Shown here in pieces: positions 2,263-58,012 of a stretch of 64,000 nt of DNA. The stretch's first letter is position 1; each line of letters begins with the position of its first letter. A model generated the notes under the pieces. The model was not told where the DNA came from. It saw nothing but the letters and a program-made list of their open reading frames with translations, and made no database searches. The stretch is from an uncultured Pseudomonadales bacterium (GTDB lineage Bacteria; Patescibacteriota; Microgenomatia; UBA1400; Chazhemtobacteraceae), in NCBI GenBank assembly GCA_964618725.1, contig CAZUBK010000004.1, forward strand, positions 79,485 to 143,484. Reading direction: 5' to 3'. Both the position numbers and the translations under genes were made by a program.

Positions 2263-2796
2263 ATGCCATCTATAAAAAACCAACAACAACTAGAAGACAT
2301 CAAAGCCGCTATCAAAGACAGCAAAGCGCTCATTCTCACCAACTACGCCGGTCTCTCCGTTGCGTCCCAAAACTCACTCAGAAAAGCTATTACCACCGCC
2401 AAGGGTTCTTACTCAGTCTACAAAAATACTCTCCTCAAGATCGCCCTCAAAGAGATGTTTGGAGACCTCCCGCAAGAGGCCCACAGTGCCCTAGAAGGTC
2501 CTACTGCCATCCTTATCGCCCTTGAGGACCCCATCGCACCCACCAAAGCTTTGATGAAGTTCAAAAAGGACAATGAACTCCCTGAAGTAAAGGTTGGTTT
2601 CATGGACGGCTCCCTTCTCACCGCTAAGGATATCGAAAATCTCAGTCTACTTCCTGGCAAAGAAGAGCTCTTAAGTCAACTTGTCCGCCAGCTCAATGCC
2701 CCTATCTCCTCCTTTGCCCAAGTCCTTCGAGTCAACCTTCAAAATGTCGTCTACGTCGTAGACTCCATTAAACGCTCCAAAGAAACCCAAGCCTAA
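2263..2796 (+). CDS. rplJ: 50S ribosomal protein L10
   Basis: MPSIKNQQQLEDIKAAIKDSKALILTNYAGLSV... matches the L10 N-terminus. The longer ORF-track start at 2128 adds an implausible leader peptide. It is followed by rplL. Confidence 0.85.
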   Translation: MPSIKNQQQLEDIKAAIKDSKALILTNYAGLSVASQNSLRKAITTAKGSYSVYKNTLLKIALKEMFGDLPQEAHSALEGPTAILIALEDPIAPTKALMKFKKDNELPEVKVGFMDGSLLTAKDIENLSLLPGKEELLSQLVRQLNAPISSFAQVLRVNLQNVVYVVDSIKRSKETQA

Positions 2797-2832
2797 AACT
2801 TTATATAGAAATTAACAATTATAAAATCTACC

Positions 2833-3210
2833 ATGTCTGACAAACTTCAAAAAATCATCGACTCCGTCTCAGAGCTCACCGTTCTTGAACTCGCTGAGTT
2901 AGTTAAGGCTCTTGAAGAGAAATTCGGTGTCTCTGCCGCCCCGATGGCTGTTGCTGGAGTAGCCGCTGCTGCTCCTGTAGAGGCCGTTGAAGAGAAAACC
3001 AGTTTCGATGTCATTCTCGCTGATGCCGGCGCCAACAAAATTGGTGTCATTAAAGCTCTCCGCGAGATCAAGTCCGACCTAGGCCTTGTCGAAGCCAAGA
3101 CCTTGGCTGAATCTGCCCCCAAAGCTATTTTGGAGGGTGCCAAGAAAGAAGATGCTGAGGCCGCCAAAGCCAAGCTTGAAGCTGCTGGAGCGAAGGTCGA
3201 GCTGAAGTAG
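2833..3210 (+). CDS. rplL: 50S ribosomal protein L7/L12
   Basis: [36 protein letters not shown]..., an Ala-rich hinge, and a C-terminus ...[39 protein letters not shown]. Confidence 0.93.
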
Positions 3211-3263
3211 TGTACTTCAGCGAGATCCCGCGAGAAATTTAGTTTCGAGTAGGGACCGGAAAC

Positions 3264-3291
3264 AAAAAATCTCCTGTGAAGGAGATTTTTT
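3264..3291. terminator. bidirectional intrinsic terminator (AAAAAATCTCC-TGTG-AAGGAGATTTTTT)
   Basis: Perfect hairpin flanked by an A-run and a T-run between the convergent rplL (+) and sigma factor (-) genes. Confidence 0.7.
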
Positions 3292-3316
3292 GGATCGACA
3301 TCCTCCTCCCTTACTC

Positions 3317-4396
3317 CTACTCTCTCAAGAAATCTCTCAACCCTTCATTTATTTTGGGATACCTCAAGAAACGAAGTGCACTCCTCTCCAGTTGCCTCAC
3401 CCTCTCTCGAGAGATCCCCATTTCATTTCCAATCTCTTCAAGGGTGTACGTCTGCCCAAACGGCTCCAGACCAAATCTCATCTTGATAATCTGCTTCTGT
3501 CGTTCTTCCGGCAGTGTCTCTATTAACCTAGTCAACTCCACCGCCAACATCTTTCTCGATACTTGCTCAAACACTAAAGGTGTCTCTGTATCCTCTATTG
3601 TCTCTCCTCTTTCACTAAAGTCTCCCTCAGCCATCGGTTCGTCCAACGAGACCACCCCCCGATATGACAAGACATTCTTTGCCAACTCACCCGAGATCCT
3701 CCCCCTGTTATCCCCCATTCTTCGATTGAGTTCTTCGGCGATCTCCTCATAATTTACCTTTCCTCCTCTCGTTTTTACTTCCTTCTCAATTTCTCTCAAT
3801 TTTCCCACTCTCTCATGAACATGAGTCGGCATCGTTGGCCCAGGAGCATTCCGAGTGAATCCTCTCTTGATCCTCTGGTTAATCCAATAAGTCGCATATG
3901 TACTTAAACGATTCCCCATTTTGTAATCAAATTTATCAACCGCATGAGTCAACCCCTCATTCCCATCTTGAATCAAGTCAGCTAAGGCCGTCCCTCTCCT
4001 GGCATAACCAATGGCTATCTTCATCACCCAACGAAGATTACTCCTAATCAACCTATCCCTCGCTTCTAAACCCTCCGCCACACCCTTCTCTAGGGATATT
4101 CTTACCTCCTCATCTAATCTCTCATTTTCTAGTCTCTCTTTAGCCGCTTTACCCAGTTCCATTCTCTCAGCTAGTTGAGACTCCTCAGTCACCGTTAGTA
4201 GCGGCTCTTGCAAAGCCTGTTTTCGATACAAGGAAACTACGTCATCATACTCCACCAACTCTATATCACCACGAAAATCCTCTTCCTCAATCTCACCCTC
4301 TTCAGTCTTTGATATATCCATCCACTCATCCAAACCATTCTCCTCATCAGCATATTGGTCTTCCCTTTCTTTCATGCACGAGATTGTAACACGCAA
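3317..4396 (-). CDS. RNA polymerase sigma-70 family factor (RpoD/SigA-like)
   Basis: Regions 2 to 4 are recognisable: ...DLIQDGNEGLTHAVDKFDYKMGNRLSTYATYWINQRI... and ...YTLEEIGNEMGISRERVRQLERSALRFLR. The N-terminus is acidic. Confidence 0.85.
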   Translation of the reverse strand: MRVTISCMKEREDQYADEENGLDEWMDISKTEEGEIEEEDFRGDIELVEYDDVVSLYRKQALQEPLLTVTEESQLAERMELGKAAKERLENERLDEEVRISLEKGVAEGLEARDRLIRSNLRWVMKIAIGYARRGTALADLIQDGNEGLTHAVDKFDYKMGNRLSTYATYWINQRIKRGFTRNAPGPTMPTHVHERVGKLREIEKEVKTRGGKVNYEEIAEELNRRMGDNRGRISGELAKNVLSYRGVVSLDEPMAEGDFSERGETIEDTETPLVFEQVSRKMLAVELTRLIETLPEERQKQIIKMRFGLEPFGQTYTLEEIGNEMGISRERVRQLERSALRFLRYPKINEGLRDFLRE

Positions 4397-15392: not shown

Positions 15393-15449
15393 AGAAACTC
15401 ATTTTATAACAAACAATAGTGAACCCACCAGGCTCACTATTGCTTAGGC

Positions 15450-15524
15450 TATAACAGGAAGCACAGTAAAACAAGCAAAATAGTCATAAACTATGCTTAG
15501 TGAAGCGAGCAAGCTCTTACCCTG
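15450..15524 (+). repeat. copy B of the ~90-nt structured repeat family
   Basis: TATAACAGGAAGCACAG...GAAGCGAGCAAGCTCTTACCCTG; the closing stem is only CAGG/CCTG. Confidence 0.4.
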
Positions 15525-15535
15525 CCCCTTTCCCC

Positions 15536-15564
15536 TTGACAAATTGGTCCACCTATAGTATACT
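15536..15564 (+). promoter_or_regulatory. consensus sigma70 promoter (TTGACA - 17 nt - TATACT)
   Basis: Exact -35 and near-consensus -10 with 17-nt spacing. No CDS lies downstream before the terminator at 15743. Confidence 0.6.
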
Positions 15565-15570
15565 GACCGC

Positions 15571-15770
15571 CTTCTTAACAAAAAGGATGTTTCAACACGC
15601 TGGGCGCTCGCCCAGGTAAAATCCCAAGGAGACGCCGCGTGAAGACGAAACGACCTCTCTAGGGCACGGGACTGCGTGAGTCCTAAACAGAGTACGCAAC
15701 GCGTCTCTGCACGGCCATACCCCGTGCCCAAAATAACAAATACCCCCAGCTAAAGCCGGGGGTTATTTTT
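15571..15770 (+). ncRNA. candidate ~200-nt structured small RNA of unknown family
   Basis: Bounded by the consensus promoter and an intrinsic terminator. It contains a perfect 9-bp long-range stem, GGGCACGGG at 15662-15670 pairing CCCGTGCCC at 15721-15729, and a CTGGGC-GCTC-GCCCAG hairpin. No convincing ORF. Confidence 0.4.
15743..15770. terminator. intrinsic terminator (CCCCCAGC-TAAA-GCCGGGGG plus TTATTTTT), usable on both strands
   Basis: Hairpin plus T-run on the + strand. The reverse complement is followed by TATTTGTTATTTT and sits downstream of ndk on the minus strand. Confidence 0.65.
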
Positions 15771-15796
15771 GATGGTAAAATATCTCTGTCTACTCC

Positions 15797-47999: not shown

Positions 48000-49152
48000 T
48001 CAGCAATATTCGTCTGTATCTGACAATTCGAAGATTATATAAAACAATAAGCAGTCGATACTCAGTCATGACAACTTACGAACAAAATATATCAGTCAAT
48101 TGACGTATCGGATTACACCTCCCAAGACAGCCCTCTTTCTCTAAGTTACCTTCCCTTACTTCTCCTCCTTCCTATACTCAAATTACTTGGGTATATCTCC
48201 TCGCTCTGACTCCTCGACATTGTAGTCCCTTTCTACACCCCTCTATCCTGACACGCAGCAACTTAAGGGTATATCCTAGATCCCAAATATCTATCGAAAA
48301 CAACTTAACAACAAACCATATCAGGCAACCTTGAAGACAGGCCCACATCCCTGAACCCTCTCTAATATCCCCTTCATCATCCAAACTTGATAGTCATTAC
48401 CCTCGCTCTACGTATTTAGCGCTCTCATCGATTATTTTGCCCAGCTCTTTTTCCTATCAAAACAATCACCCGAGTGCTAAATGGTCCATTACAGTCAAAA
48501 ATTGTCTAGATTTCCGAGTAAAGAAAAAACCAGACTCCTTACGCGCAAACCTTATCCCGCTCATCTGCTGCTAAATCCAATAACCGACCCACATCAACAC
48601 TATGACGTCCACACTTCACCGTCCTAGGCACAGATATATCACTTCCCGGGTTCAGCAAATCAATCTAGATCAGAATATCTCAAAATTCTTTTCACTCCAG
48701 ACAGGTCTACAGTACAACACCTTCGGAAATAATCAACAAATATATAACAAACACCTCCTCCGTAGGCTCGGTCCATCACAAATTAGTTTTCCGCATAGAT
48801 TCCCACAAAGCTAGATCTCCACAAAGTCTATCCTAACCGTTTTCATCCTCCTGATGTATCTTCTTTTTCATAAATGGCCCTTTTTTGACATGCAACTCAT
48901 CTCAAACCCGTAGTGAGCCAAGTAATGACCCTAGACTGTTCACGTCCTTTTGTTCCACACAAATCAAGGGCCTCACCACTCCCCTTTCATTTGTCGTCTT
49001 CATTTAGACTATTTCGCAAAAAAATTAGTAATGTCCTATCAACTTTCTCTTCCAGACCAATCAGTACAAACCACCTGAAGATAGATTTTCTATCGAAAAA
49101 TTATTAACGGTTAGCGTTTTAGCAACACGATCTTCAGTCTGGAATAGCAAAA

Positions 49153-49176
49153 TGGGGGCATTGCTGCCCCCATTAT
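49153..49176 (-). terminator. intrinsic terminator for the 49176..50084 gene (TGGGGGCA-TTGC-TGCCCCCA)
   Basis: 8-bp GC hairpin followed on the minus strand by TTTTGCTATT. Confidence 0.65.
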
Positions 49177-50084
49177 TAGTTCCCTTCTTCTAACCATTTG
49201 TTGTACTGAACAAACGCTTCCGCCTCAGTCCAGCCAAAGGCTTTTTCAAAGGCCACCGGTGATGCCTCCCCTGCACAGAGACTTCGCCAATAGAGATGGA
49301 AAACTTCCAGACTACTAGCCTCTACACTCGGCGCTTCAAGTAGCAAAAAGACTGCAAAAGCCTCCGCTGTAGGGACTCCGTCACCAGACACTCTACCTGT
49401 AGACATTTCCTCAATTAACGGCTTTTCCCAAGTCTTTAGATTGAGAATCCAATCCTGATACTGAGAGGTCTCTAACAATTCCCTCCAGGTCGTCTGTTTT
49501 TTGGGGAAAGACCCCTCCAACTGACTATTCACCAAATCCTGAAGTAGATATGCTTCGCCTTCAATCATGTAGCCAGGCGCCGCCATATTGCCGCAACTTA
49601 GATGTCGTTGTGACGCATGAATCAGTTCATGGGTGAGTATTTTTGTCCGCCAAGCAGCATCCAGTTGATACCAACCTTCTGTCCCGTCAATAATAATCAC
49701 TACCTGACCGGGCTCCTGTCCTGAAAGAGTTAGACCGCGAATCTCCTCATTACTCCAAGCGTTTTCAGAACGTCCTGAAGTTGACAATCTCTCTGTCGCC
49801 CGCATGATTAGTTCACGATCAAACCCAACCACAATCCGCGTTCCCTCAGGTAAAACGTAACCCTCTAAGGAAAGATAATCAACCACCGACAGCAACTGCG
49901 CTGCAGCGTTTACTTCAATAGCAGGGTCAACCGGTTCCAGATATTCTAACTCCGGCAACCCAACCAGCGTCGCTGTTTGGTACTTCTCGATTTTGTTTGT
50001 CTCCTGAATTAACCAGAACAACTCAACTGCCACAATCGTCCAGACAAAAATAGCTACGAAAGTCCAGGATCGCCTTTTCATCAA
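49176..50084 (-). CDS. putative HExxH zinc metallopeptidase, membrane-anchored
   Basis: N-terminal TM helix, and THELIHASQRH followed by ...MIEGEAY, possibly a gluzincin third ligand. Confidence 0.5.
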   Translation of the reverse strand: MMKRRSWTFVAIFVWTIVAVELFWLIQETNKIEKYQTATLVGLPELEYLEPVDPAIEVNAAAQLLSVVDYLSLEGYVLPEGTRIVVGFDRELIMRATERLSTSGRSENAWSNEEIRGLTLSGQEPGQVVIIIDGTEGWYQLDAAWRTKILTHELIHASQRHLSCGNMAAPGYMIEGEAYLLQDLVNSQLEGSFPKKQTTWRELLETSQYQDWILNLKTWEKPLIEEMSTGRVSGDGVPTAEAFAVFLLLEAPSVEASSLEVFHLYWRSLCAGEASPVAFEKAFGWTEAEAFVQYNKWLEEGN

Positions 50085-50167
50085 TACCTCCGCAAAAAGT
50101 GAATGTACTACCCCATACTATATCATATAGATACAAATTGGGGTGGCTTAAGCCACCCCAATAGAAA

Positions 50168-50557
50168 CTACTTTTCCAAAATCCGAGCCATCAGCAAAGT
50201 GTAAAACAAAGATGCCAAGGCCATCAAGATCATCACCAGCGGGAGCACTGCTCCCCCAATTCCCAATATCTGCATATCTGGTAGCCAGGAAGCACCCAAC
50301 ACTGCCCACAGCTCAACAACATACAATCCTATTTCCGCCGGGTGACTATTCTGCTCACTAAAGTAAAGACCCACCTTGACCGGCGTGGCCAAAAACAGCT
50401 GGACCAAGACCAGCAGAAGGTAGTTCTCGAAACGAAGTTCCGGTAACCACAAAAAGATCGCGGCAATAGTCAGCACTACACCACTGACCACCGCCTGAAT
50501 TAAGTCCTGGAGCTCATACGGCTCCTTTAACGCCTGTTGTAAATTAACCCTTCCCAT
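50168..50557 (-). CDS. hypothetical small polytopic membrane protein
   Basis: Three hydrophobic helices. Confidence 0.5.
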   Translation of the reverse strand: MGRVNLQQALKEPYELQDLIQAVVSGVVLTIAAIFLWLPELRFENYLLLVLVQLFLATPVKVGLYFSEQNSHPAEIGLYVVELWAVLGASWLPDMQILGIGGAVLPLVMILMALASLFYTLLMARILEK

Positions 50558-50695
50558 TTCTCTATCCTTTCAAAGAACCAAGTTGCCGATAGTATATCAA
50601 GACTGTGATGTGTAAGCAATTACAGATCTTGACAAGCCCCCCTTCTTATGGTACTATAGGACCCATCGTTTCCACATTATAATATTGGAGGAAAC

Positions 50696-51238
50696 ATGGA
50701 TCTCTTTAACAGCGCTAAAGCCAAGGTTGTTCTGGTCAAGAATCATACTCTCACCCAGACCGTCCTCGACGTTCTGGAAGGCGTGATTCTGATTTTGACA
50801 GCCATCCAGGCTGCCAAGGTCACCCTGCTGTTCGCTCTCCATCTGTTTGGGGCGCAAATCCCCAGCTGGGGCGCACAGCTCGCCGGAACTTCCTACCTGC
50901 TGGTTTTGGGGGATTTCGCCCTTCGGGGCGCCGTCCTCTACGGCCTGGTCCGGCTCGAATCTGACCCGAATCAGCGGCGTGAGCTTCACGCCACGGCCAC
51001 GCCCATCATGGCGCTGGCCAGCCTGGGCCTGATTGTCAACCTGCTCCCCTTTGAATGGCGGAGTCTGGGAACAATCGTTCTGATCGGCGCCTTCGGCGGC
51101 ATCACCCATGTGAGCCTCCACGGCACGCTCATGAATTGGAAGCAGACGATTAGTGCCGTCGAGGCACTGTTCAACAAGGCGAACGACAAGCTCGCCAAGA
51201 CTGCTCCGGCTCCGGCCAAGAAACAGACCACCAGCTAG
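50696..51238 (+). CDS. hypothetical polytopic membrane protein in a GC-rich islet
   Basis: Four TM helices. Local GC is about 60% versus about 45% for the window. A strong terminator follows. Confidence 0.55.
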   Translation: MDLFNSAKAKVVLVKNHTLTQTVLDVLEGVILILTAIQAAKVTLLFALHLFGAQIPSWGAQLAGTSYLLVLGDFALRGAVLYGLVRLESDPNQRRELHATATPIMALASLGLIVNLLPFEWRSLGTIVLIGAFGGITHVSLHGTLMNWKQTISAVEALFNKANDKLAKTAPAPAKKQTTS

Positions 51239-51253
51239 CGCAACAAAAGATCA

Positions 51254-51278
51254 CCGCCCCTCATCGAGGGGCGGTTTT
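51254..51278 (+). terminator. intrinsic terminator (CCGCCCCTC-ATC-GAGGGGCGG plus TTTT)
   Basis: Perfect 9-bp hairpin followed by a T-run. Confidence 0.75.
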
Positions 51279-51290
51279 CGTATACAAAAT

Positions 51291-51318
51291 GCCCTCTTTG
51301 TCTAAAAACAAAGAGGGC
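51291..51318 (-). terminator. hairpin terminator for the convergent minus-strand gene (GCCCTCTTTGT-loop-ACAAAGAGGGC)
   Basis: 11-bp perfect stem. The minus-strand downstream sequence is ATTTTGTATA. Confidence 0.5.
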
Positions 51319-51343
51319 TGAAAGTCCCGTTAGAGACGAAAAG

Positions 51344-51943
51344 CTATTCCTGCCGCGTCTGTGACCGCTCCCGGGGTGCCTCGGTTGGGATCCGTGGCGT
51401 CGCCGCCCTGGCCACCGGTATAGTCGCCGACGCATCGGGTTCTTCATTCATCCGCGCCTCAAGACTAGCCGCCGCGTCACCGGCAATCTGACCGATCTTG
51501 GCGCCAACTGGCTTAAGAGCCGACATGAGCATGGAAAGACCAGTGACCAAACCAATCCGAACTCCCCTAAAGACACCCAATTGGTGGTTCTCAACCATCC
51601 AAAGGAGGCCGAAACCAACGAGCAGGACCAGAAGTACGGGTACCGCCGATAACGACGGTAGTAAAATTACCCCAACTGCCGCAATCAACGTCAAACCAAT
51701 CACCAGCAACTCAAAGGCTGCATCTTCAGCCGTATCGAAAAACCAGGTCATCACTTGGAAGACAGCAATCAACGCGATCGATCCACCAGCCAAGTACAAT
51801 GCTTCCATCGGACTCTCGCCCAAAAGTAGGTTCAACAGCAAGTCAACACAGATGATCGTCAGAAAGATAGATTGAATCACATCCCAAACCATCGCCATCT
51901 TCGGCTTGGCTCGCTTATTCTTCCACGCATTCCACAAACCCAT
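51344..51943 (-). CDS. hypothetical polytopic membrane protein in a GC-rich islet
   Basis: Four TM helices and a GC-rich C-terminal tail that is Pro/Arg-rich. Confidence 0.55.
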   Translation of the reverse strand: MGLWNAWKNKRAKPKMAMVWDVIQSIFLTIICVDLLLNLLLGESPMEALYLAGGSIALIAVFQVMTWFFDTAEDAAFELLVIGLTLIAAVGVILLPSLSAVPVLLVLLVGFGLLWMVENHQLGVFRGVRIGLVTGLSMLMSALKPVGAKIGQIAGDAAASLEARMNEEPDASATIPVARAATPRIPTEAPRERSQTRQE

Positions 51944-52042
51944 TTAAGTTTCTCCTTTTTAAGATATAAATGTTCGAATACGCAAATTATACTTCATAGT
52001 AGTGATAAGTCAATCTCATAACCAGACGATAGTAAGATTATT

Positions 52043-52142
52043 ATCGGCGCAGTTATAAGAGGAAGCGCAGGACATCATTTCGATAATACATATTATCGAA
52101 GGTAAGGATGAGCAAGTCGTAAATCCTTTAGGGCTCTTATAA
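52043..52142 (+). repeat. copy C of the ~90-nt structured repeat family (closing stem TTATAAGAG/CTCTTATAA)
   Basis: Shares TTATCGGCGCAG...TTATAAGAGGAAGCGCAG...GAGCAAG with copy A. It has an internal hairpin CGATAAT-ACAT-ATTATCG. Confidence 0.5.
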
Positions 52143-52147
52143 GGTAG

Positions 52148-53053
52148 TTACTTTTCAAACCATCGATTGAATATCACGCTTGTTTCATGAAATTTCGCCC
52201 GAAATGCCGGATAAACAAAATAGGCCGCCATTGCTTCCGCAAATTTTTCTCCGTTTTTTAACACTACATCCAAGGTCTCCAACTCTCCCGTTGCATAATC
52301 ACGAGTCACATCAATTCTCGTATCACTTTCATCTTTCTCAAGAGCCGAAATAACATCGCCTTGTTCTTCTGGTGACAACTGAGCCCAAATAAGATGAGCC
52401 ATTTCGTGCCGAAATGTTCTTTCATACGCTGCCAATAATATATCAGTCTTGTCTCCAGATACCTCCCTCATTCGACTCACAGTAGGTAAATACAGAAGGA
52501 CTCTTTTCTGTTTAATTTCTGAATGGCCCCCATATACACTTTTGCGAGACTGGCTGTACCAGCGAGTCGGTATAACCACTATCTCTGAAACTACATCTTC
52601 CTTCTCTATATCACTCGGCACCATCTCCTCTACCATCACCATCATCTTTTTTCGAAACTCCTCCATCTCCATAGCAGTCATATCAAATCCCTCTGGTCCC
52701 AGTATCCTAACCCCATCAATTGGAGCAATCTCACTAGTCTTAGCAAGAATCTGCCACTTCCCCTCAATATCTTCCCAAGTTCTTGCCGTATGGAGAGCAC
52801 TGTCAGGAAATTCTTGTCTTCTCAACATCTTTTCAGCCATGGTCTGGACTTGCTCATCAGCTTTGTGAGATACCCCCTGCTTTGCTCTTAATGCAAAAGT
52901 TGTCCAAAGCACCTTCTCAACATTCATTTTCCTATTAGTTTGTCCTTCAAAGTCAGCCGGTCTACTAGGTTGTTTCAACAACTTATACACCCACAACCTA
53001 TCACGGTTCTCAACCTCTCGCTCTGTCGGTCTAGTCTCAATCGTCTCATCCAT
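52148..53053 (-). CDS. putative HExxH metallopeptidase-like protein (paralog 1)
   Basis: FRHEMAHLIWAQLSPEEQ lies near the C-terminus, with the same placement as in 53320..54471. Confidence 0.5.
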   Translation of the reverse strand: MDETIETRPTEREVENRDRLWVYKLLKQPSRPADFEGQTNRKMNVEKVLWTTFALRAKQGVSHKADEQVQTMAEKMLRRQEFPDSALHTARTWEDIEGKWQILAKTSEIAPIDGVRILGPEGFDMTAMEMEEFRKKMMVMVEEMVPSDIEKEDVVSEIVVIPTRWYSQSRKSVYGGHSEIKQKRVLLYLPTVSRMREVSGDKTDILLAAYERTFRHEMAHLIWAQLSPEEQGDVISALEKDESDTRIDVTRDYATGELETLDVVLKNGEKFAEAMAAYFVYPAFRAKFHETSVIFNRWFEK

Positions 53054-53056
53054 ACC

Positions 53057-53320
53057 TTAGGCTTCAATTCTATAACCGTTCTCAAATAACACAGCCCTCA
53101 ATCCTACAAAATACTCTAGATCATTTACATCCGTTACTAGTTTAACTCCATGCCCTATGACCCCATCTCCAGCTACAACTGTTCTCACTTCCACACCTTC
53201 TTTTACCGTCTCTAACACTCGTTTCAACTCTAGACCATTCTCTCCAACAACAACCCAATTTCCATTCTGGTATTGGATCCTCCATTCTCTGTTATCTTTT
53301 TTTACTCTATATTCTTCCAT
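53057..53320 (-). CDS. small hypothetical protein (87 aa) between the two HExxH paralogs
   Basis: Tightly packed, with a 4-nt gap and a shared boundary, suggesting one operon. Confidence 0.45.
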   Translation of the reverse strand: MEEYRVKKDNREWRIQYQNGNWVVVGENGLELKRVLETVKEGVEVRTVVAGDGVIGHGVKLVTDVNDLEYFVGLRAVLFENGYRIEA

Positions 53321-54471
53321 TATTTGATTTTTGGATTATGTATTTCGTCTAACACTCGCATTGTATTCCTAAAGAATTTCTTATACTGTCCCAGCTTCCC
53401 ATAGCTCTTGTATATTTCCATAGACATCGTGTATATCTCCTGCTGCTGTTGTTCTTCAAGGAGTTTTAGTAAATATCTCTCGGGATAAGCAAAGGATGGT
53501 AAATACCCATCATTCGTTTGTTCGTCAAGTACGGCCGCTTGTAGTATTTGATCTTTTTGTTCATCAGTCAAGACATAATTCCAGTCTAAATGTCCAATTT
53601 CATGTATGAAATAATCTCTATAAAGATATTTAAATGTCTCAACGGCATCCTGACTCAAACCAGCCAAGAAGACTTTAGCCATAGGGGATATTTGTATATA
53701 TCTTCTATCGGAGTCAGCACGACCCACAACAACCATTCCGCCTACCAACAGTACATTTTCAGGAACAAAATCTATATGATCAACTAAATCAACTACTTCT
53801 CCCCCTGGTAACATCACTGTATCACTAACATCTTTATTTACACAGCTTTCATTCATTATCATCTCATACGTACTATAAAGTCTCCTTATCTCATCCTCGG
53901 TTAATCCCCAAAGTTCCAACCCCCTTATTTTCCCTCCCCCAGGCACCTCTCCCTTTCTGTCTGATACTTCTTTCCTCAATACAATCAAACGTTTGACCAG
54001 TGAATTGTAAATTTTCTGATCAAAGCTATCTTCATCCCAAAGAGTGTTTGAGATTTGATCTGCCTCTTCTCGCAATACCACCATTTGATCTCTCAAGTCA
54101 CCCAATTCCTCATCCTCTAAAACAGCATCTGCTGCTGCCACTATGTAGCTTGCTACTAATATCTGACCACCGAATTTCACCTTCCTTTTACCAACCCTAC
54201 CCTCCTTACTCTCCTGTATCATCCATTTTGCTATCTCACCAATATCCTCCTTCATTCTTTTGACCGGTAGTCCTGGGATTAGTACTTTGTCATACAAAAA
54301 CTCATACAACTTTCGACTCAGTTCACAACTTCTTTCTTCCTCCTGACTTTCTGGGTCCTTCATCCTCAGGGGAAATAACTCGCCAAACCTATCAAACACC
54401 CATTTGCTTTCGACTTGCCGTACTCCATCAATTTTCACCCCTTCCGAAATCTCATCCGCCATATTCAACAT
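53320..54471 (-). CDS. putative HExxH metallopeptidase-like protein (paralog 2)
   Basis: FIHEIGHLDWNYVLTDEQ has the same motif placement as 52148..53053. Confidence 0.5.
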   Translation of the reverse strand: MLNMADEISEGVKIDGVRQVESKWVFDRFGELFPLRMKDPESQEEERSCELSRKLYEFLYDKVLIPGLPVKRMKEDIGEIAKWMIQESKEGRVGKRKVKFGGQILVASYIVAAADAVLEDEELGDLRDQMVVLREEADQISNTLWDEDSFDQKIYNSLVKRLIVLRKEVSDRKGEVPGGGKIRGLELWGLTEDEIRRLYSTYEMIMNESCVNKDVSDTVMLPGGEVVDLVDHIDFVPENVLLVGGMVVVGRADSDRRYIQISPMAKVFLAGLSQDAVETFKYLYRDYFIHEIGHLDWNYVLTDEQKDQILQAAVLDEQTNDGYLPSFAYPERYLLKLLEEQQQQEIYTMSMEIYKSYGKLGQYKKFFRNTMRVLDEIHNPKIK

Positions 54472-54508
54472 CCTACCACCAATCCCCCTCTTCTTCTATT
54501 CTTTCTTG

Positions 54509-54582
54509 TGGACCCGATCGGGATCGAACCGATTACCTCCACTATGCCATAGTGGCGCTCTAGCCAAGTGAGCTACGGGCCC
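54509..54582 (-). tRNA. tRNA-Ala (anticodon GGC)
   Basis: Minus strand GGGCCCG-TA-GCTC-ACTTGGCTA-GAGC...CCACT-ATGGCAT-AGTGG...ATCGG-TTCGATC-CCGAT-CGGGTCC-A. The G3·U70 alanine identity pair is present. Confidence 0.8.
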
Positions 54583-54699
54583 GCGTAAAACGTGGCAAGC
54601 CAAGCTACATTTTACCATGTTATTATAACCACCAATAGTGAAAATTAAGCTCTTATCCCCCTACGCACCTTTCCATTCATGTTCTTAAGGAGACCTCCC

Positions 54700-54909
54700 A
54701 TGTCCAATCTTCCTCTGTCAAGCATCAAAGTCTTCTCTGATACCACTCCTTTCAAGGTCGAAGTTCAAGCCCAAACCTGGTCAGAGCTGATGAGTCGCAC
54801 CTACAACAACTTCCAGATCACCGCCCTTACTTCTACCTATACTCCAGCCGAAGGCCGCCACAAAGCTTTTTTCATCCTGACAATCGCCTATACTTACGAT
54901 CCCTTTTAA
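54700..54909 (+). CDS. small hypothetical protein (~69 aa) between inverted tRNA-Ala genes
   Basis: AAGGAG SD at 54687-54692, 7 nt before the ATG at 54700. The ORF-track start at 54679 is less likely. Confidence 0.4.
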   Translation: MSNLPLSSIKVFSDTTPFKVEVQAQTWSELMSRTYNNFQITALTSTYTPAEGRHKAFFILTIAYTYDPF

Positions 54910-55013
54910 TCCTTTTTTTCACCACCTCCTCTTGGCTGGTTTCTGTCTGTTTCTTCCATCAGTGTGGCAAACTATCTCTGGCTTGCCGCGTTTTGGCTTG
55001 CCGCGTTTTACGC

Positions 55014-55084
55014 GGGCCCGTAGTTAAACGGTATACCATACCCTTCGCATGGGTAGATTCCGGGTTCGACTCCCGGCGGGTCCA
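55014..55084 (+). tRNA. tRNA-Ala-like (anticodon CGC), possibly degenerate
   Basis: GGGCCCG acceptor identical to the minus-strand tRNA-Ala, G3·U70, loop TTCGCAT, T-arm CCGGG-TTCGACT-CCCGG. The D-arm is atypical with one mismatch. Confidence 0.5.
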
Positions 55085-55681
55085 CATCTCAACAAAACTC
55101 TCCCGAAAGGAAACGCACCTTGATTCTCAAACACGTCTTTACTCTGGAAAGAAAGCAAGCCATCCGCGTCTTTAATTTCTCCGGCTTTCGCTTCACCTTC
55201 ATCGATGACAAATTCCCCATCACTCTAGTCAAAGCCATTCTCCATCTCACCCCTACTCAACTCAACCCCAACCTTTCTTTTCTTAACGACTTACCTATTA
55301 ACTCACCCCTCATCTTCACCTTCACCAACTGGGTTCTCCCCTTTGAGCCGTCCCCCCCGCTTAACTTTGACTTAAGTAGGCTTACCGACTCCGACCTCCT
55401 CATCCGCTCCCATCACTCCAGTTACGAAGCCATCCCCCGCTACCACTCGTATGCTCACTCCATTAGACGAATATATCGTCGTCTTACTCTAGAGAGTTCA
55501 GCCTTTAATTCTGTTGGCACCCGTCCCAAACACCAAATAATTCTCCCTCTCAGCCGCCAACACTTTCGCTTAAGCCAACATCTTCTCCCTGGGACTGTCT
55601 TTCGCTTTAATCTGCAACTCAAAGTCGATAACTAGTTTCACTCCCCCGCCAACCGGCGGGGTTCTCGTGTAAAATATCCTT

Positions 55682-55870
55682 ATGTCAGATCTAACCCTTA
55701 TCTGCAAGAACTGCGATAACGAATTTGTCTTCTCACAAGTCGCAGATCCCCGTATGGGGAGCGAACAGACTTTCTATACCCAAAAAGGCATTCCTGTCCC
55801 GATATATTGCCCAATTTGCCGTGCCCTGAAAAGAGCAGAAAGTCTCCACCCACCCAAACCAAAAATCTAA
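55682..55870 (+). CDS. zinc-ribbon protein (CxxC...CPxC)
   Basis: ICKNCDNEF...YCPICRA. A GC hairpin lies about 15 nt upstream. Confidence 0.5.
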   Translation: MSDLTLICKNCDNEFVFSQVADPRMGSEQTFYTQKGIPVPIYCPICRALKRAESLHPPKPKI

Positions 55871-57216
55871 TGTAATCTCTCCAGAAACTCAATATTCGTC
55901 CTGATTCCCTTCTCCCACATACTCAAACTCAACTTCTCGTTCGGGCTATGCAATCCATCATCAGGCAATCCATACCCCATCATCACACTATCAATCCCTA
56001 GTATTTTCTTGAAATCAACCGTTATCCCGATACTCCCGCCAGCCAGTTCATAAAGTGGCTTGTTACCAAACACTTTCTCAAACGCCTCCTCTGCCGCCTT
56101 GAAATACCGACTATCTTTATTAAGCAACAGCGGCTCCGCTCCATGAAGCGATATCACCTCAATAGTTGCTCCTTCCGGAGTCAGCGACTTGATATATCCA
56201 GTAAACTTCTCCGCAATATCCTTACTCGTTTGGTTTGGTACTAACCTCATACTGATTTTGGCATGCGCTTCTGCTGGTATCGCCGTCTTTGGCCCGACCC
56301 CAGTATACCCACTCCAAATTCCGTTTACATCCAATGTCGGCCTTGCCCCCGCTCTCATCTGGACACTCATCCCTTCTTCCCCCACTGCTATTGTGGCTCC
56401 TGTCTCACTCATTACCTCTTTTTCAGTAAAAGGAAACTTCTCTAATTGCTTTCTCTCCTGAACTGACACCTCCCTCACTTCATCATAAAAGCCTGACACC
56501 AATATTCGCCCATCTTTATCTTTCAGTTTGGCAATTATCTCCGCTAAGACATTGGCTGCATTTAAGACATTTCCTCCATACGTCCCACTGTGAACGTCAA
56601 AAGACAATGTCTTCACATGGACTTCCATATAGGCCAGCCCTCGTAAGCCATATGTAATCACCGGTTGGTTTTCTGACAACGAATGATTATCCGACAAAAC
56701 ACAAATGTCACTTTTCAAAAGCGTCTTGTTATCCGCTACAAACTCACTTAACCCTTTCGATCCTATTTCTTCCGCTCCCTCAATCAGAAACTTTATATTC
56801 ACCGGCAATCTCCCCTTCTTTTCCAATAGCGCCTCGACCGCCGCAATCCAGGTGTATAGCTGTCCCTTGTCATCCGCCGTCCCTCTACCGTAGATATTTC
56901 CTGCTCGAATCTCTGGCTTAAACGGTTCGCTGCTCCACTCCCCTAACGGTTCCGGCGACTGGACGTCGTAATGGCCATAGATCAAGACCGTTGGCGAGAG
57001 GTCTCCTGCATCAAGTCTCTCCGCATAGACCACCGGCCGTTCATTTTCCATCACCTTCGCTTCAAAGCCCATCCCTTTCAGTTTGTTTATCAACCACAAC
57101 GCCGCCTCTTCCATCTGGGGAGCATATTCTTCATCCGCTGATAGCGACGAAATCGCTAATAGTTCAGATAGTTCCTTCAACCATTTTCCTTTTTTCTCTG
57201 CCGTAATCTCAGCCAT
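55867..57216 (-). CDS. M20 family dipeptidase/peptidase (ArgE/DapE-like)
   Basis: ...LIYGHYDVQSPEP...GRGTADDKGQLY...FLIEGAEEIGS... Start chosen at MAEITAEKK; the ORF track extends about 94 codons further. Confidence 0.8.
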   Translation of the reverse strand: MAEITAEKKGKWLKELSELLAISSLSADEEYAPQMEEAALWLINKLKGMGFEAKVMENERPVVYAERLDAGDLSPTVLIYGHYDVQSPEPLGEWSSEPFKPEIRAGNIYGRGTADDKGQLYTWIAAVEALLEKKGRLPVNIKFLIEGAEEIGSKGLSEFVADNKTLLKSDICVLSDNHSLSENQPVITYGLRGLAYMEVHVKTLSFDVHSGTYGGNVLNAANVLAEIIAKLKDKDGRILVSGFYDEVREVSVQERKQLEKFPFTEKEVMSETGATIAVGEEGMSVQMRAGARPTLDVNGIWSGYTGVGPKTAIPAEAHAKISMRLVPNQTSKDIAEKFTGYIKSLTPEGATIEVISLHGAEPLLLNKDSRYFKAAEEAFEKVFGNKPLYELAGGSIGITVDFKKILGIDSVMMGYGLPDDGLHSPNEKLSLSMWEKGIRTNIEFLERLH

Positions 57217-57297
57217 AAAGCAATTGTACTCTAACCCTTGCACATTTGTTAAGGGTTGTATATACTTATAGGATCGACATCTACACAAGGAGAAAAC

Positions 57298-57516
57298 TTG
57301 TCCAAAACATCGCTGCCCCGCGTCAAAGTTGTCTTTGACGCCACCACAGGTGAATATTTTCTCAGCACTAACGGTGAAGCCGAACCACATCTCGCCCTCG
57401 TTGCCTTGCGCAAGACCGCCGCAGACGATGGTTGGGAGATCCACTCCAAGCTCCAGCGGATTCTCGGCTCGTATCGCGTCCTCGTCGTCAAAGCACATTC
57501 AGAAACGGAGAAATAA
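57298..57516 (+). CDS. small hypothetical protein (TTG start after AAGGAG)
   Basis: Its stop overlaps the ATG of the next gene (TAATG). Confidence 0.4.
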   Translation: MSKTSLPRVKVVFDATTGEYFLSTNGEAEPHLALVALRKTAADDGWEIHSKLQRILGSYRVLVVKAHSETEK

Positions 57517-57980
57517 TGATCAAAGTTGCTCGTTACGCTGGAATCAAAGTCACTCAGTCCAATAATACTCTGATGATTAGTGGCACCTCGCTGAGCATCA
57601 ACGCAAAGTGGGCCGCCAGCCAGTTTGCCAAAAAATATGGTTATGAACTCGATACTGAGTTAGCGAAACGGGAGTATCCCACCCTTCATTTCGTGGTTGG
57701 CATTAAACCCAAGGTCACTTACACGGACGGCAACATTCTTGTCACCGGACTTGATGCCAATGGTACACAAAGTATTCAATCCATTCTCGAGTTGGCTTTG
57801 GAATACACTCGGGAAAACCAGTTGATTCTCGACTCAATCGACCCCGAACAGATCGTGTATCTCCATCTGATTACTTCAGATGGTCATATCCCGGCCTATC
57901 TCATTCCTGCCAAACCAATTACCTGGATCCGCCCGGAACCAACCGCGCACTCGCCTCTTGGCATGCCAGACGCCTGGTGA
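57516..57980 (+). CDS. hypothetical protein (154 aa)
   Basis: GGAG SD before the ATG at 57516 (MIKVARYAG...). Confidence 0.55.
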   Translation: MIKVARYAGIKVTQSNNTLMISGTSLSINAKWAASQFAKKYGYELDTELAKREYPTLHFVVGIKPKVTYTDGNILVTGLDANGTQSIQSILELALEYTRENQLILDSIDPEQIVYLHLITSDGHIPAYLIPAKPITWIRPEPTAHSPLGMPDAW

Positions 57981-58012
57981 TATATCTCGACCCCCTCTCA
58001 CAGGGGGTCATT

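Follow-up and report, generated by a model that had tools for sequence, protein, structure and literature searches.

Two tRNA-Ala genes with different anticodons stand head to head across a short spacer in a 64-kb stretch of bacterial DNA (64,000 nucleotides, referred to below as the window), and nearly the same short sequence precedes both of them. What kind of history leaves such a pair? tRNA genes are classic attachment sites for integration, where integrases target the 3' part of the tRNA and duplicate it as a direct repeat. Quasi-palindrome correction and template-switch mutagenesis, in turn, are known to occur at inverted repeats in bacteria. The original prediction read the locus as an inverted duplication of a tRNA gene plus its flank, and suggested an integration site, with HExxH and GC-rich islets to its left. 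Our preferred reading, to which we assign a probability of roughly 0.6, is that this is an ordinary chromosomal tRNA locus of a CPR bacterium, with two outward-pointing Ala genes that have promoters of their own, a leader that was copied between them, and no involvement of a mobile element.

Host, neighborhood and relatives

The tRNA-Ala locus is surrounded by genes for Obg, LeuRS, Rho, ComEA/ComEC, and a LysM/M23 peptidase. The named homologues of Obg belong to the Patescibacteria (Beckwithbacteria and Collierbacteria), and its closest non-self match is 68% identical. Because of these homologues and the chromosomal neighbors Obg, LeuRS, Rho, and ComEC, the host is, as far as its genes tell, an isolated and Microgenomates-like CPR lineage, and the locus is chromosomal.

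For comparison, Logan contigs from run SRR12113420 cover 20.2 kb of the window (43320–63498) and are identical to it except for nine substitutions within 54933–54972. The closest homologue of the M20 peptidase encoded to the right of the tRNA pair is 80% identical and lies on the Logan contigs L083 and L084, from runs SRR22388221 and SRR22388202. M20 relatives at 64–65% identity (L085 and L168–L171) are not syntenic with the window locus, and an M20-anchored search of GTDB genomes and JGI metagenomes returned only proteins of at most 49% identity from unrelated phyla. L083 carries two extra genes at 2268–3320 (one of 109 aa and a Band_7 gene) between its M20 and zinc-ribbon genes, unlike the window at 55860–55870, and Obg is missing from beside its M20 gene; the local arrangement of genes is thus quick to change in this lineage.

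GC skew on the plus strand is strongly and uniformly negative throughout 1–64000 (−0.08 to −0.44 in 2-kb windows), and it is negative in every annotated ORF measured, whichever strand the ORF lies on (−0.08 to −0.50). Such values point to a compositional bias of the replication strand that is unusually strong and adds to that of the coding strand.

Two tRNA-Ala genes

ARAGORN finds four tRNA genes in the 64-kb window, two of which are tRNA-Ala genes:

54508–54582, minus strand: tRNA-Ala(GGC), 75 nt by ARAGORN, Rfam RF00005 at 56.2 bits
55014–55085, plus strand: tRNA-Ala(CGC), 72 nt by ARAGORN, Rfam RF00005 at 54.7 bits

Both Rfam matches are full-length, against a gathering score of 29 for RF00005, and ARAGORN draws a normal cloverleaf for each gene. 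The two tRNA-Ala genes that had been read from the sequence are thus upheld, including the plus copy, whose D-arm had been described as odd. The oddity amounts to a compact build, with a 7-nt D loop, a 4-nt variable loop, and a single U11.C24 mismatch, next to the classical build and 5-nt variable loop of the GGC gene. The same compact build is found in the tRNA-Ala(GGC) of two more distant relatives, L085 and L169. A tmRNA reading of the locus was rejected, since the anticodon arm of the plus copy is complete and ARAGORN reports no tmRNA.

The genes have in common the 5' start GGGCCCGTAG and the 3' end CGGGTCCA, in agreement with the earlier description of identical acceptor ends. The pairing GGGCCCG...CGGGTCC-A gives both copies G3:U70 (G3:T70 in the DNA) and A73, and the anticodons GGC and CGC each sit in a 7-nt loop with U33 and A37. 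Neither gene encodes CCA. The Ala codons GCC, GCT, and GCG are used 27.7, 17.6, and 16.2 times per 1000, respectively. Since the cloverleaves, the Ala identity elements, and the use of cognate codons all agree, both are credible as working genes. The identity of the acceptor ends would then be explained by AlaRS, which reads the acceptor stem (G3:U70 and A73). The bodies of the tRNAs do differ, as had been stated, and overall only 51 of 76 positions (about 67%) are identical.

The genes are arranged head to head, so that their 5' ends face each other and they point outward across a 431-bp spacer (54583–55013). The fetched loci hold 30 tRNAs in all, too few to give a base rate for head-to-head tRNA pairs.

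The window contains a second head-to-head pair, consisting of tRNA-Pro (minus) and tRNA-Arg (plus) at 15393–15796 with a 404-bp spacer. This spacer holds a strong sigma-70 promoter (TTGACA at 15536–15541, a 17-nt spacer, and TATACT at 15559–15564), a strongly folded stretch of about 200 nt (MFE −72.6 kcal/mol, z −4.24), and, at 15743–15771, a terminator made up of a hairpin and a T run. A comparison with Rfam at E values up to 1 returned nothing beyond the terminator hairpin, and we regard about 15571–15771 on the plus strand as a candidate unclassified small RNA.

The spacer ORF and the genes behind the tRNAs

A small ORF had been noted within the segment of about 430 bp between the Ala genes, and further genes follow each tRNA on its own strand:

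54700–54909, plus strand: 69-aa ORF, with the Shine-Dalgarno sequence AAGGAGA at 54687–54693
55120–55635, plus strand: 171-aa ORF, with a TTG start 34 nt after tRNA-Ala(CGC)
55682–55870, plus strand: gene of a 62-aa zinc-ribbon protein, after the 171-aa ORF and converging on the M20 peptidase gene
53320–54471, minus strand: HExxH orphan of 383 aa (380 aa as called), 37–46 nt past the 3' end of tRNA-Ala(GGC)

The 69-aa ORF is indeed present with its ribosome-binding sequence. Its codon-usage log-odds of 0.132 is the best of the six frames and falls inside the coding range (coding sequence scores 0.168 ± 0.075, non-coding sequence −0.36 ± 0.27). A HMMER search against 1.84 billion representatives gave no true homologue; its matches are multi-stretch and to long proteins only, and were read as compositional. 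The ORF has no Pfam or PHROG match, it is not among the called genes of the Logan contig, and its single-sequence AF2 model is beta-rich and of modest confidence (pLDDT 63). It is an orphan and possibly a real lineage-specific small gene, judging from its codon usage and start context. Nothing ties it functionally to the tRNAs.

The right-hand side of the locus can be compared with L083. Read in the window orientation, this contig has a tRNA 3' end (...GGTTCGATTCCGCTCAGGTCCA), about 30 nt of spacing, a 177-aa gene starting MILK, and a zinc-ribbon gene; it ends inside the tRNA, before the spacer. Its tRNA 3' end is consistent with G3:U70. The 171-aa protein aligns weakly with the 177-aa one (32% identity over 77 aa, E 0.004). 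The unit of a tRNA followed by these genes is thus conserved in L083, and the two plus-strand ORFs behind tRNA-Ala(CGC) are real. No terminator-like site was found in 54300–55900, and because of this and the close spacing, each tRNA-Ala is probably co-transcribed with the same-strand genes 34–46 nt behind it.

The M20 peptidase gene (55867–57498, minus strand) deserves a separate comment. It is called as 543 aa, compared with the 442–450 aa typical of its homologues, and its first 93 residues have no counterpart in them, so that its true start is probably the Met at 57219. Its stop and the stop region of the zinc-ribbon gene, which converges on it, have 4 nt in common.

A shared flank and its putative promoters

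The original prediction had pointed to a flank shared by the two genes in opposite orientations, and the repeat search bears this out. It reports an inverted repeat of 31 nt with arms at 54573–54603 and 54993–55023, separated by a gap of 389 nt and identical at 30 of 31 positions (97% complementary). Each arm consists of 21 nt of 5' flank (TTGGCTTGCC[A/G]CGTTTTACGC) and tRNA positions 1–10:

54583–54603, minus strand: 21-nt 5' flank TTGGCTTGCCACGTTTTACGC of tRNA-Ala(GGC), part of the left arm and a predicted leader
54993–55013, plus strand: 21-nt 5' flank TTGGCTTGCCGCGTTTTACGC of tRNA-Ala(CGC), part of the right arm and the counterpart of 54583–54603
54979–54993 and 54994–55008, plus strand: tandem duplication of the 15-nt unit TGGCTTGCCGCGTTT, 100% identical by repeat search

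The 20-mer GGCTTGCCRCGTTTTACGCG occurs exactly twice in the 64-kb window, where 0.01 occurrences would be expected by chance. When the 215-nt upstream regions are aligned locally, only 21 nt match, 20 of which are identical, and the match stops sharply at −21; at the other end the similarity of the repeat runs out at tRNA position 10. The 3' flanks of the two genes are unrelated by alignment. The shared piece is thus a discrete one of 21 nt plus tRNA positions 1–10, the latter being constrained anyway (acceptor stem, and the U8 and G10 region). Both arms and the 15-nt tandem duplication are also found in the Logan assembly of run SRR12113420. The duplication in front of the plus copy is real, although its unit comprises 15 of the 21 flank bases and not the whole 20-mer that had been described.

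A motif scan places a putative promoter immediately in front of the shared flank:

54609–54617, minus strand: extended −10 box TGGTAAAAT of tRNA-Ala(GGC)

Its hexamer ends 5 nt before the 21-nt flank, so that the boundary lies 5–6 nt downstream. The same TGGTAAAAT 9-mer precedes tRNA-Arg at 15773, and boxes of the form TGnTAnAAT precede several other genes. The CGC copy has, in the window sequence, the degenerate −10 box TGGCAAACT (54965–54973), with 5 nt between it and the first tandem unit; in the Logan assembly TGGTAAAAT stands at the equivalent place, likewise 5 nt upstream of that unit, and the Logan sequence TGGTAAAATATCTCTG at this promoter matches the tRNA-Arg promoter as an exact 16-mer. 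As a sequence match only, the sigma-70 extended −10 pattern (TGn plus TAnAAT) is thus present in front of the GGC gene and, for the CGC gene, in the Logan haplotype. If transcription began about 7 nt past the hexamer, it would start at the GG of (T)TGGCTTGCC in either gene. Because the flank begins 5–6 nt after the −10 hexamer, it is most likely a transcribed 5' leader that would be removed by RNase P. Its predicted length is about 19 nt for the GGC gene and about 34 nt for the CGC gene, where the duplication has lengthened it. Rfam detects no other RNA family in the spacer or the downstream region at E values up to 1.

Origin of the shared flank

How did two tRNA genes that are only two-thirds identical come to share this flank? 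Of the inverted duplication that had been proposed, the inverted copy of the flank and the tRNA 5' end is there; duplication of a whole gene together with its flank, as stated, is unsupported. A simple event of that kind is disfavored because a flank free of constraint should have diverged more than the gene, not less, and here the flank is identical at 20 of 21 positions compared with 51 of 76 for the tRNAs.

We tentatively prefer, at somewhat less than even odds, that the leader was recently copied between the inverted tRNA-Ala genes, rather than held in common by selection. In the model we propose, the 431-bp spacer would hold a separate extended −10 promoter for each tRNA-Ala, from which the gene is transcribed outward, and the leader of one gene would have been copied to the other by short-tract gene conversion or by a template switch between the inverted copies. 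The copying would have been anchored on the two short homologies that bracket the leader, the only ones present: the −10 box on one side, the conserved tRNA 5' end on the other. The stretch seems to be repeat-prone, since a slippage-type duplication adjoins it, and the 15-nt tandem duplication may be a slippage product of the same stretch. Two observations go against this model: the arms are 389 nt apart, and the −10 box of the CGC gene is degenerate (TGGCAAACT) in the window.

Copying and selection predict the same present-day sequence. Selection might instead have preserved the 19–21-nt leader for a function, for instance as an initial transcribed sequence common to both genes, an RNase P context, an operator, or an RNA-binding site, and the leader could couple the expression of both Ala isoacceptors and of the genes behind them. 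Such a role would fit the much better conservation of the flank than of the tRNAs, as well as the position of the flank boundary: in both copies it falls at the predicted transcription start, even though the promoter regions upstream cannot otherwise be aligned. The other tRNAs of the window, tRNA-Arg and tRNA-Pro, have predicted leaders of at most 9 nt that lack the motif, and a 19-nt Ala leader may therefore have a function. However, folding of the leader, alone or with its tRNA, gives no significant structure (z −0.02 to −1.9), and the A/G difference disrupts, in the minus copy, a small GCGU/ACGC hairpin of the plus-copy leader. The exact string CGTTTTACGCGGGCCCGTAG has no match in the JGI metagenomes; the leader motif has none in IMG/VR and is absent from all fetched loci save the Logan contig of the same locus. 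Moreover, the leader of a more distant relative's tRNA-Ala(GGC) (L085) is unrelated to the shared 21-mer, and a 15-nt duplication is unexpected inside a tightly constrained element. On balance we consider selection an unlikely explanation.

A clustered difference between two assemblies

The nine substitutions that separate the window from the Logan contigs fall together:

54933–54972, plus strand: 40-nt patch holding all nine differences, upstream of the tRNA-Ala(CGC) leader and spanning its −10 region

Inversion was rejected as the origin of the patch, as no inverted segment reproduces the Logan sequence, and a search of the 64-kb window gave no donor for it. The patch suggests a bolder version of the functional reading, in which this CPR lineage uses the leader GGCUUGCCRCGUUUUACGC as a cis-element specific to Ala, and the patch is an on/off polymorphism of the tRNA-Ala(CGC) promoter. 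If this were true, both Ala isoacceptors and the gene strings behind them would be expressed or processed in a coordinated way through the element, and the nine-substitution patch would represent a population-level swap of the consensus TGGTAAAAT for the degenerate TGGCAAACT. We regard the combination as improbable, but the clustered promoter polymorphism is the only feature of the locus that is perhaps worth a closer look with reads.

The junction between the two Logan contigs of the locus lies inside tRNA-Ala(GGC), where they overlap by 30 nt (54537–54566). If this overlap is taken as k−1 of the assembler, the assembly graph would branch within the gene, and the likely cause is another organism in the sample that shares part of the tRNA-Ala(GGC) sequence.

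Integration, assembly error, and transposition

To the left of the pair lies a series of genes of which the HExxH orphan is the one nearest to the tRNA:

49176–54471, minus strand: block of seven orphan genes, the first encoding the 383-aa HExxH protein

None of the seven proteins has a Pfam or PHROG match, and a search of 5.8 billion proteins with the 383-aa protein returned only the protein itself. HExxH motifs are found in three of the seven genes, and the 383-aa and 301-aa proteins share the weak paralogous motif F-x-HE-x-x-HL-x-W...EEQ (E 7e-4). Along the block, which could be variable DNA, the GC content moves between 0.41 and 0.51. This orphan character and uneven composition, together with the standing of tRNA genes as attachment sites, speak for the suggestion that the pair is a tRNA-targeted integration site, the block an integrated island, and the duplicated end and flank the scar of its arrival. 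However, orphan genes are common in CPR genomes, and the piece shared here is the 5' end and upstream flank, in inverted orientation. Outside the pair, the 64-kb window repeats no word of 12 nt or more from the two tRNAs and their flanks, and a direct repeat of the tRNA 3' ends that might delimit an island (at least 14 nt, 48000–58000) is absent from the 20 largest of 35 repeat families. The called genes of 43320–63498 include no integrase, recombinase, or transposase domain, and the sole phage match in 52000–58000 is a 68-nt match to tRNA-Ala. The integration-site claim is not borne out by these searches, and we give it only a slight chance of being correct.

It is more doubtful still that faulty assembly produced the inverted repeat or the tandem duplication. 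The break of the Logan contigs inside tRNA-Ala(GGC) and the disagreement of two assemblies over the 40-nt patch might raise the suspicion, but Logan contig L082 runs unbroken through the spacer, both arms, the duplication, and tRNA-Ala(CGC), differs from the window there only in the patch, and reproduces the same configuration; both tRNAs are also complete and the flanking genes intact. Finally, the 451-bp segment 54573–55023 has the geometry of a MITE-like element with 31-bp terminal inverted repeats and 389 nt between the arms, but this reading is effectively refuted, because 10 nt of each arm are positions 1–10 of two different, complete, and well-scoring tRNAs, which an insertion could not have made by chance, and because arms and interior have no further copies in the window, target-site duplications are lacking, and the flank motif is missing from IMG/VR and from every fetched locus but the same-locus Logan contig.

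Discussion

The locus is best described as a head-to-head pair of Ala isoacceptor genes that share a predicted pre-tRNA leader, probably a copied one, and as an ordinary tRNA locus rather than a mobile-element junction. A full-text literature search returned nothing relevant. The arrangement can be compared with known systems of a more general kind.

One comparison is with clustered bacterial tRNA isoacceptors shaped by local duplication and gene conversion, which it resembles in having adjoining genes for the same amino acid with identical acceptor stems, a shared stretch of flank, and a repeat-prone sequence with a slippage-type tandem duplication. It differs in that the genes are head to head instead of in the usual same-strand tandem, and in that they share only the leader and positions 1–10, one gene being a classical 75-nt and the other a compact 72-nt tRNA. 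With quasi-palindrome and template-switch mutagenesis the locus shares near-perfect short arms, the adjoining slippage-type duplication, and a tract bracketed by homology; however, a separation of 389 nt is far for classical hairpin-templated correction, and the event itself is inferred.

The genes behind the tRNAs recall units in which tRNA and mRNA are co-transcribed, an example being the E. coli thrU-tyrU-glyT-thrT-tufB operon. As in such units, same-strand genes follow within tens of bases and terminator-like sites are lacking, which holds on both sides of the pair and, for the CGC side, also in a relative. In contrast to the thrU-tufB type, co-transcription is here predicted from the layout, and the downstream proteins are small or orphan and not translation factors. 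The likeness to tRNA-gene attachment sites ends with a tRNA that adjoins a block of lineage-specific genes, since the searches above gave neither an integrase nor a direct repeat of the 3' end, and the repeat found is an inverted one of the 5' end and its flank.

For the organism, the finding is that a CPR genome carries two intact Ala isoacceptor genes head to head, which has little import beyond annotation. The striking inverted repeat between them is read as a shared pre-tRNA leader rather than as the scar of a mobile element. It nevertheless provides a small and clean example of a flank that is better conserved than the gene it adjoins, and comparison with relatives, should their sequences become available, could show whether selection acts on pre-tRNA leaders in reduced genomes.
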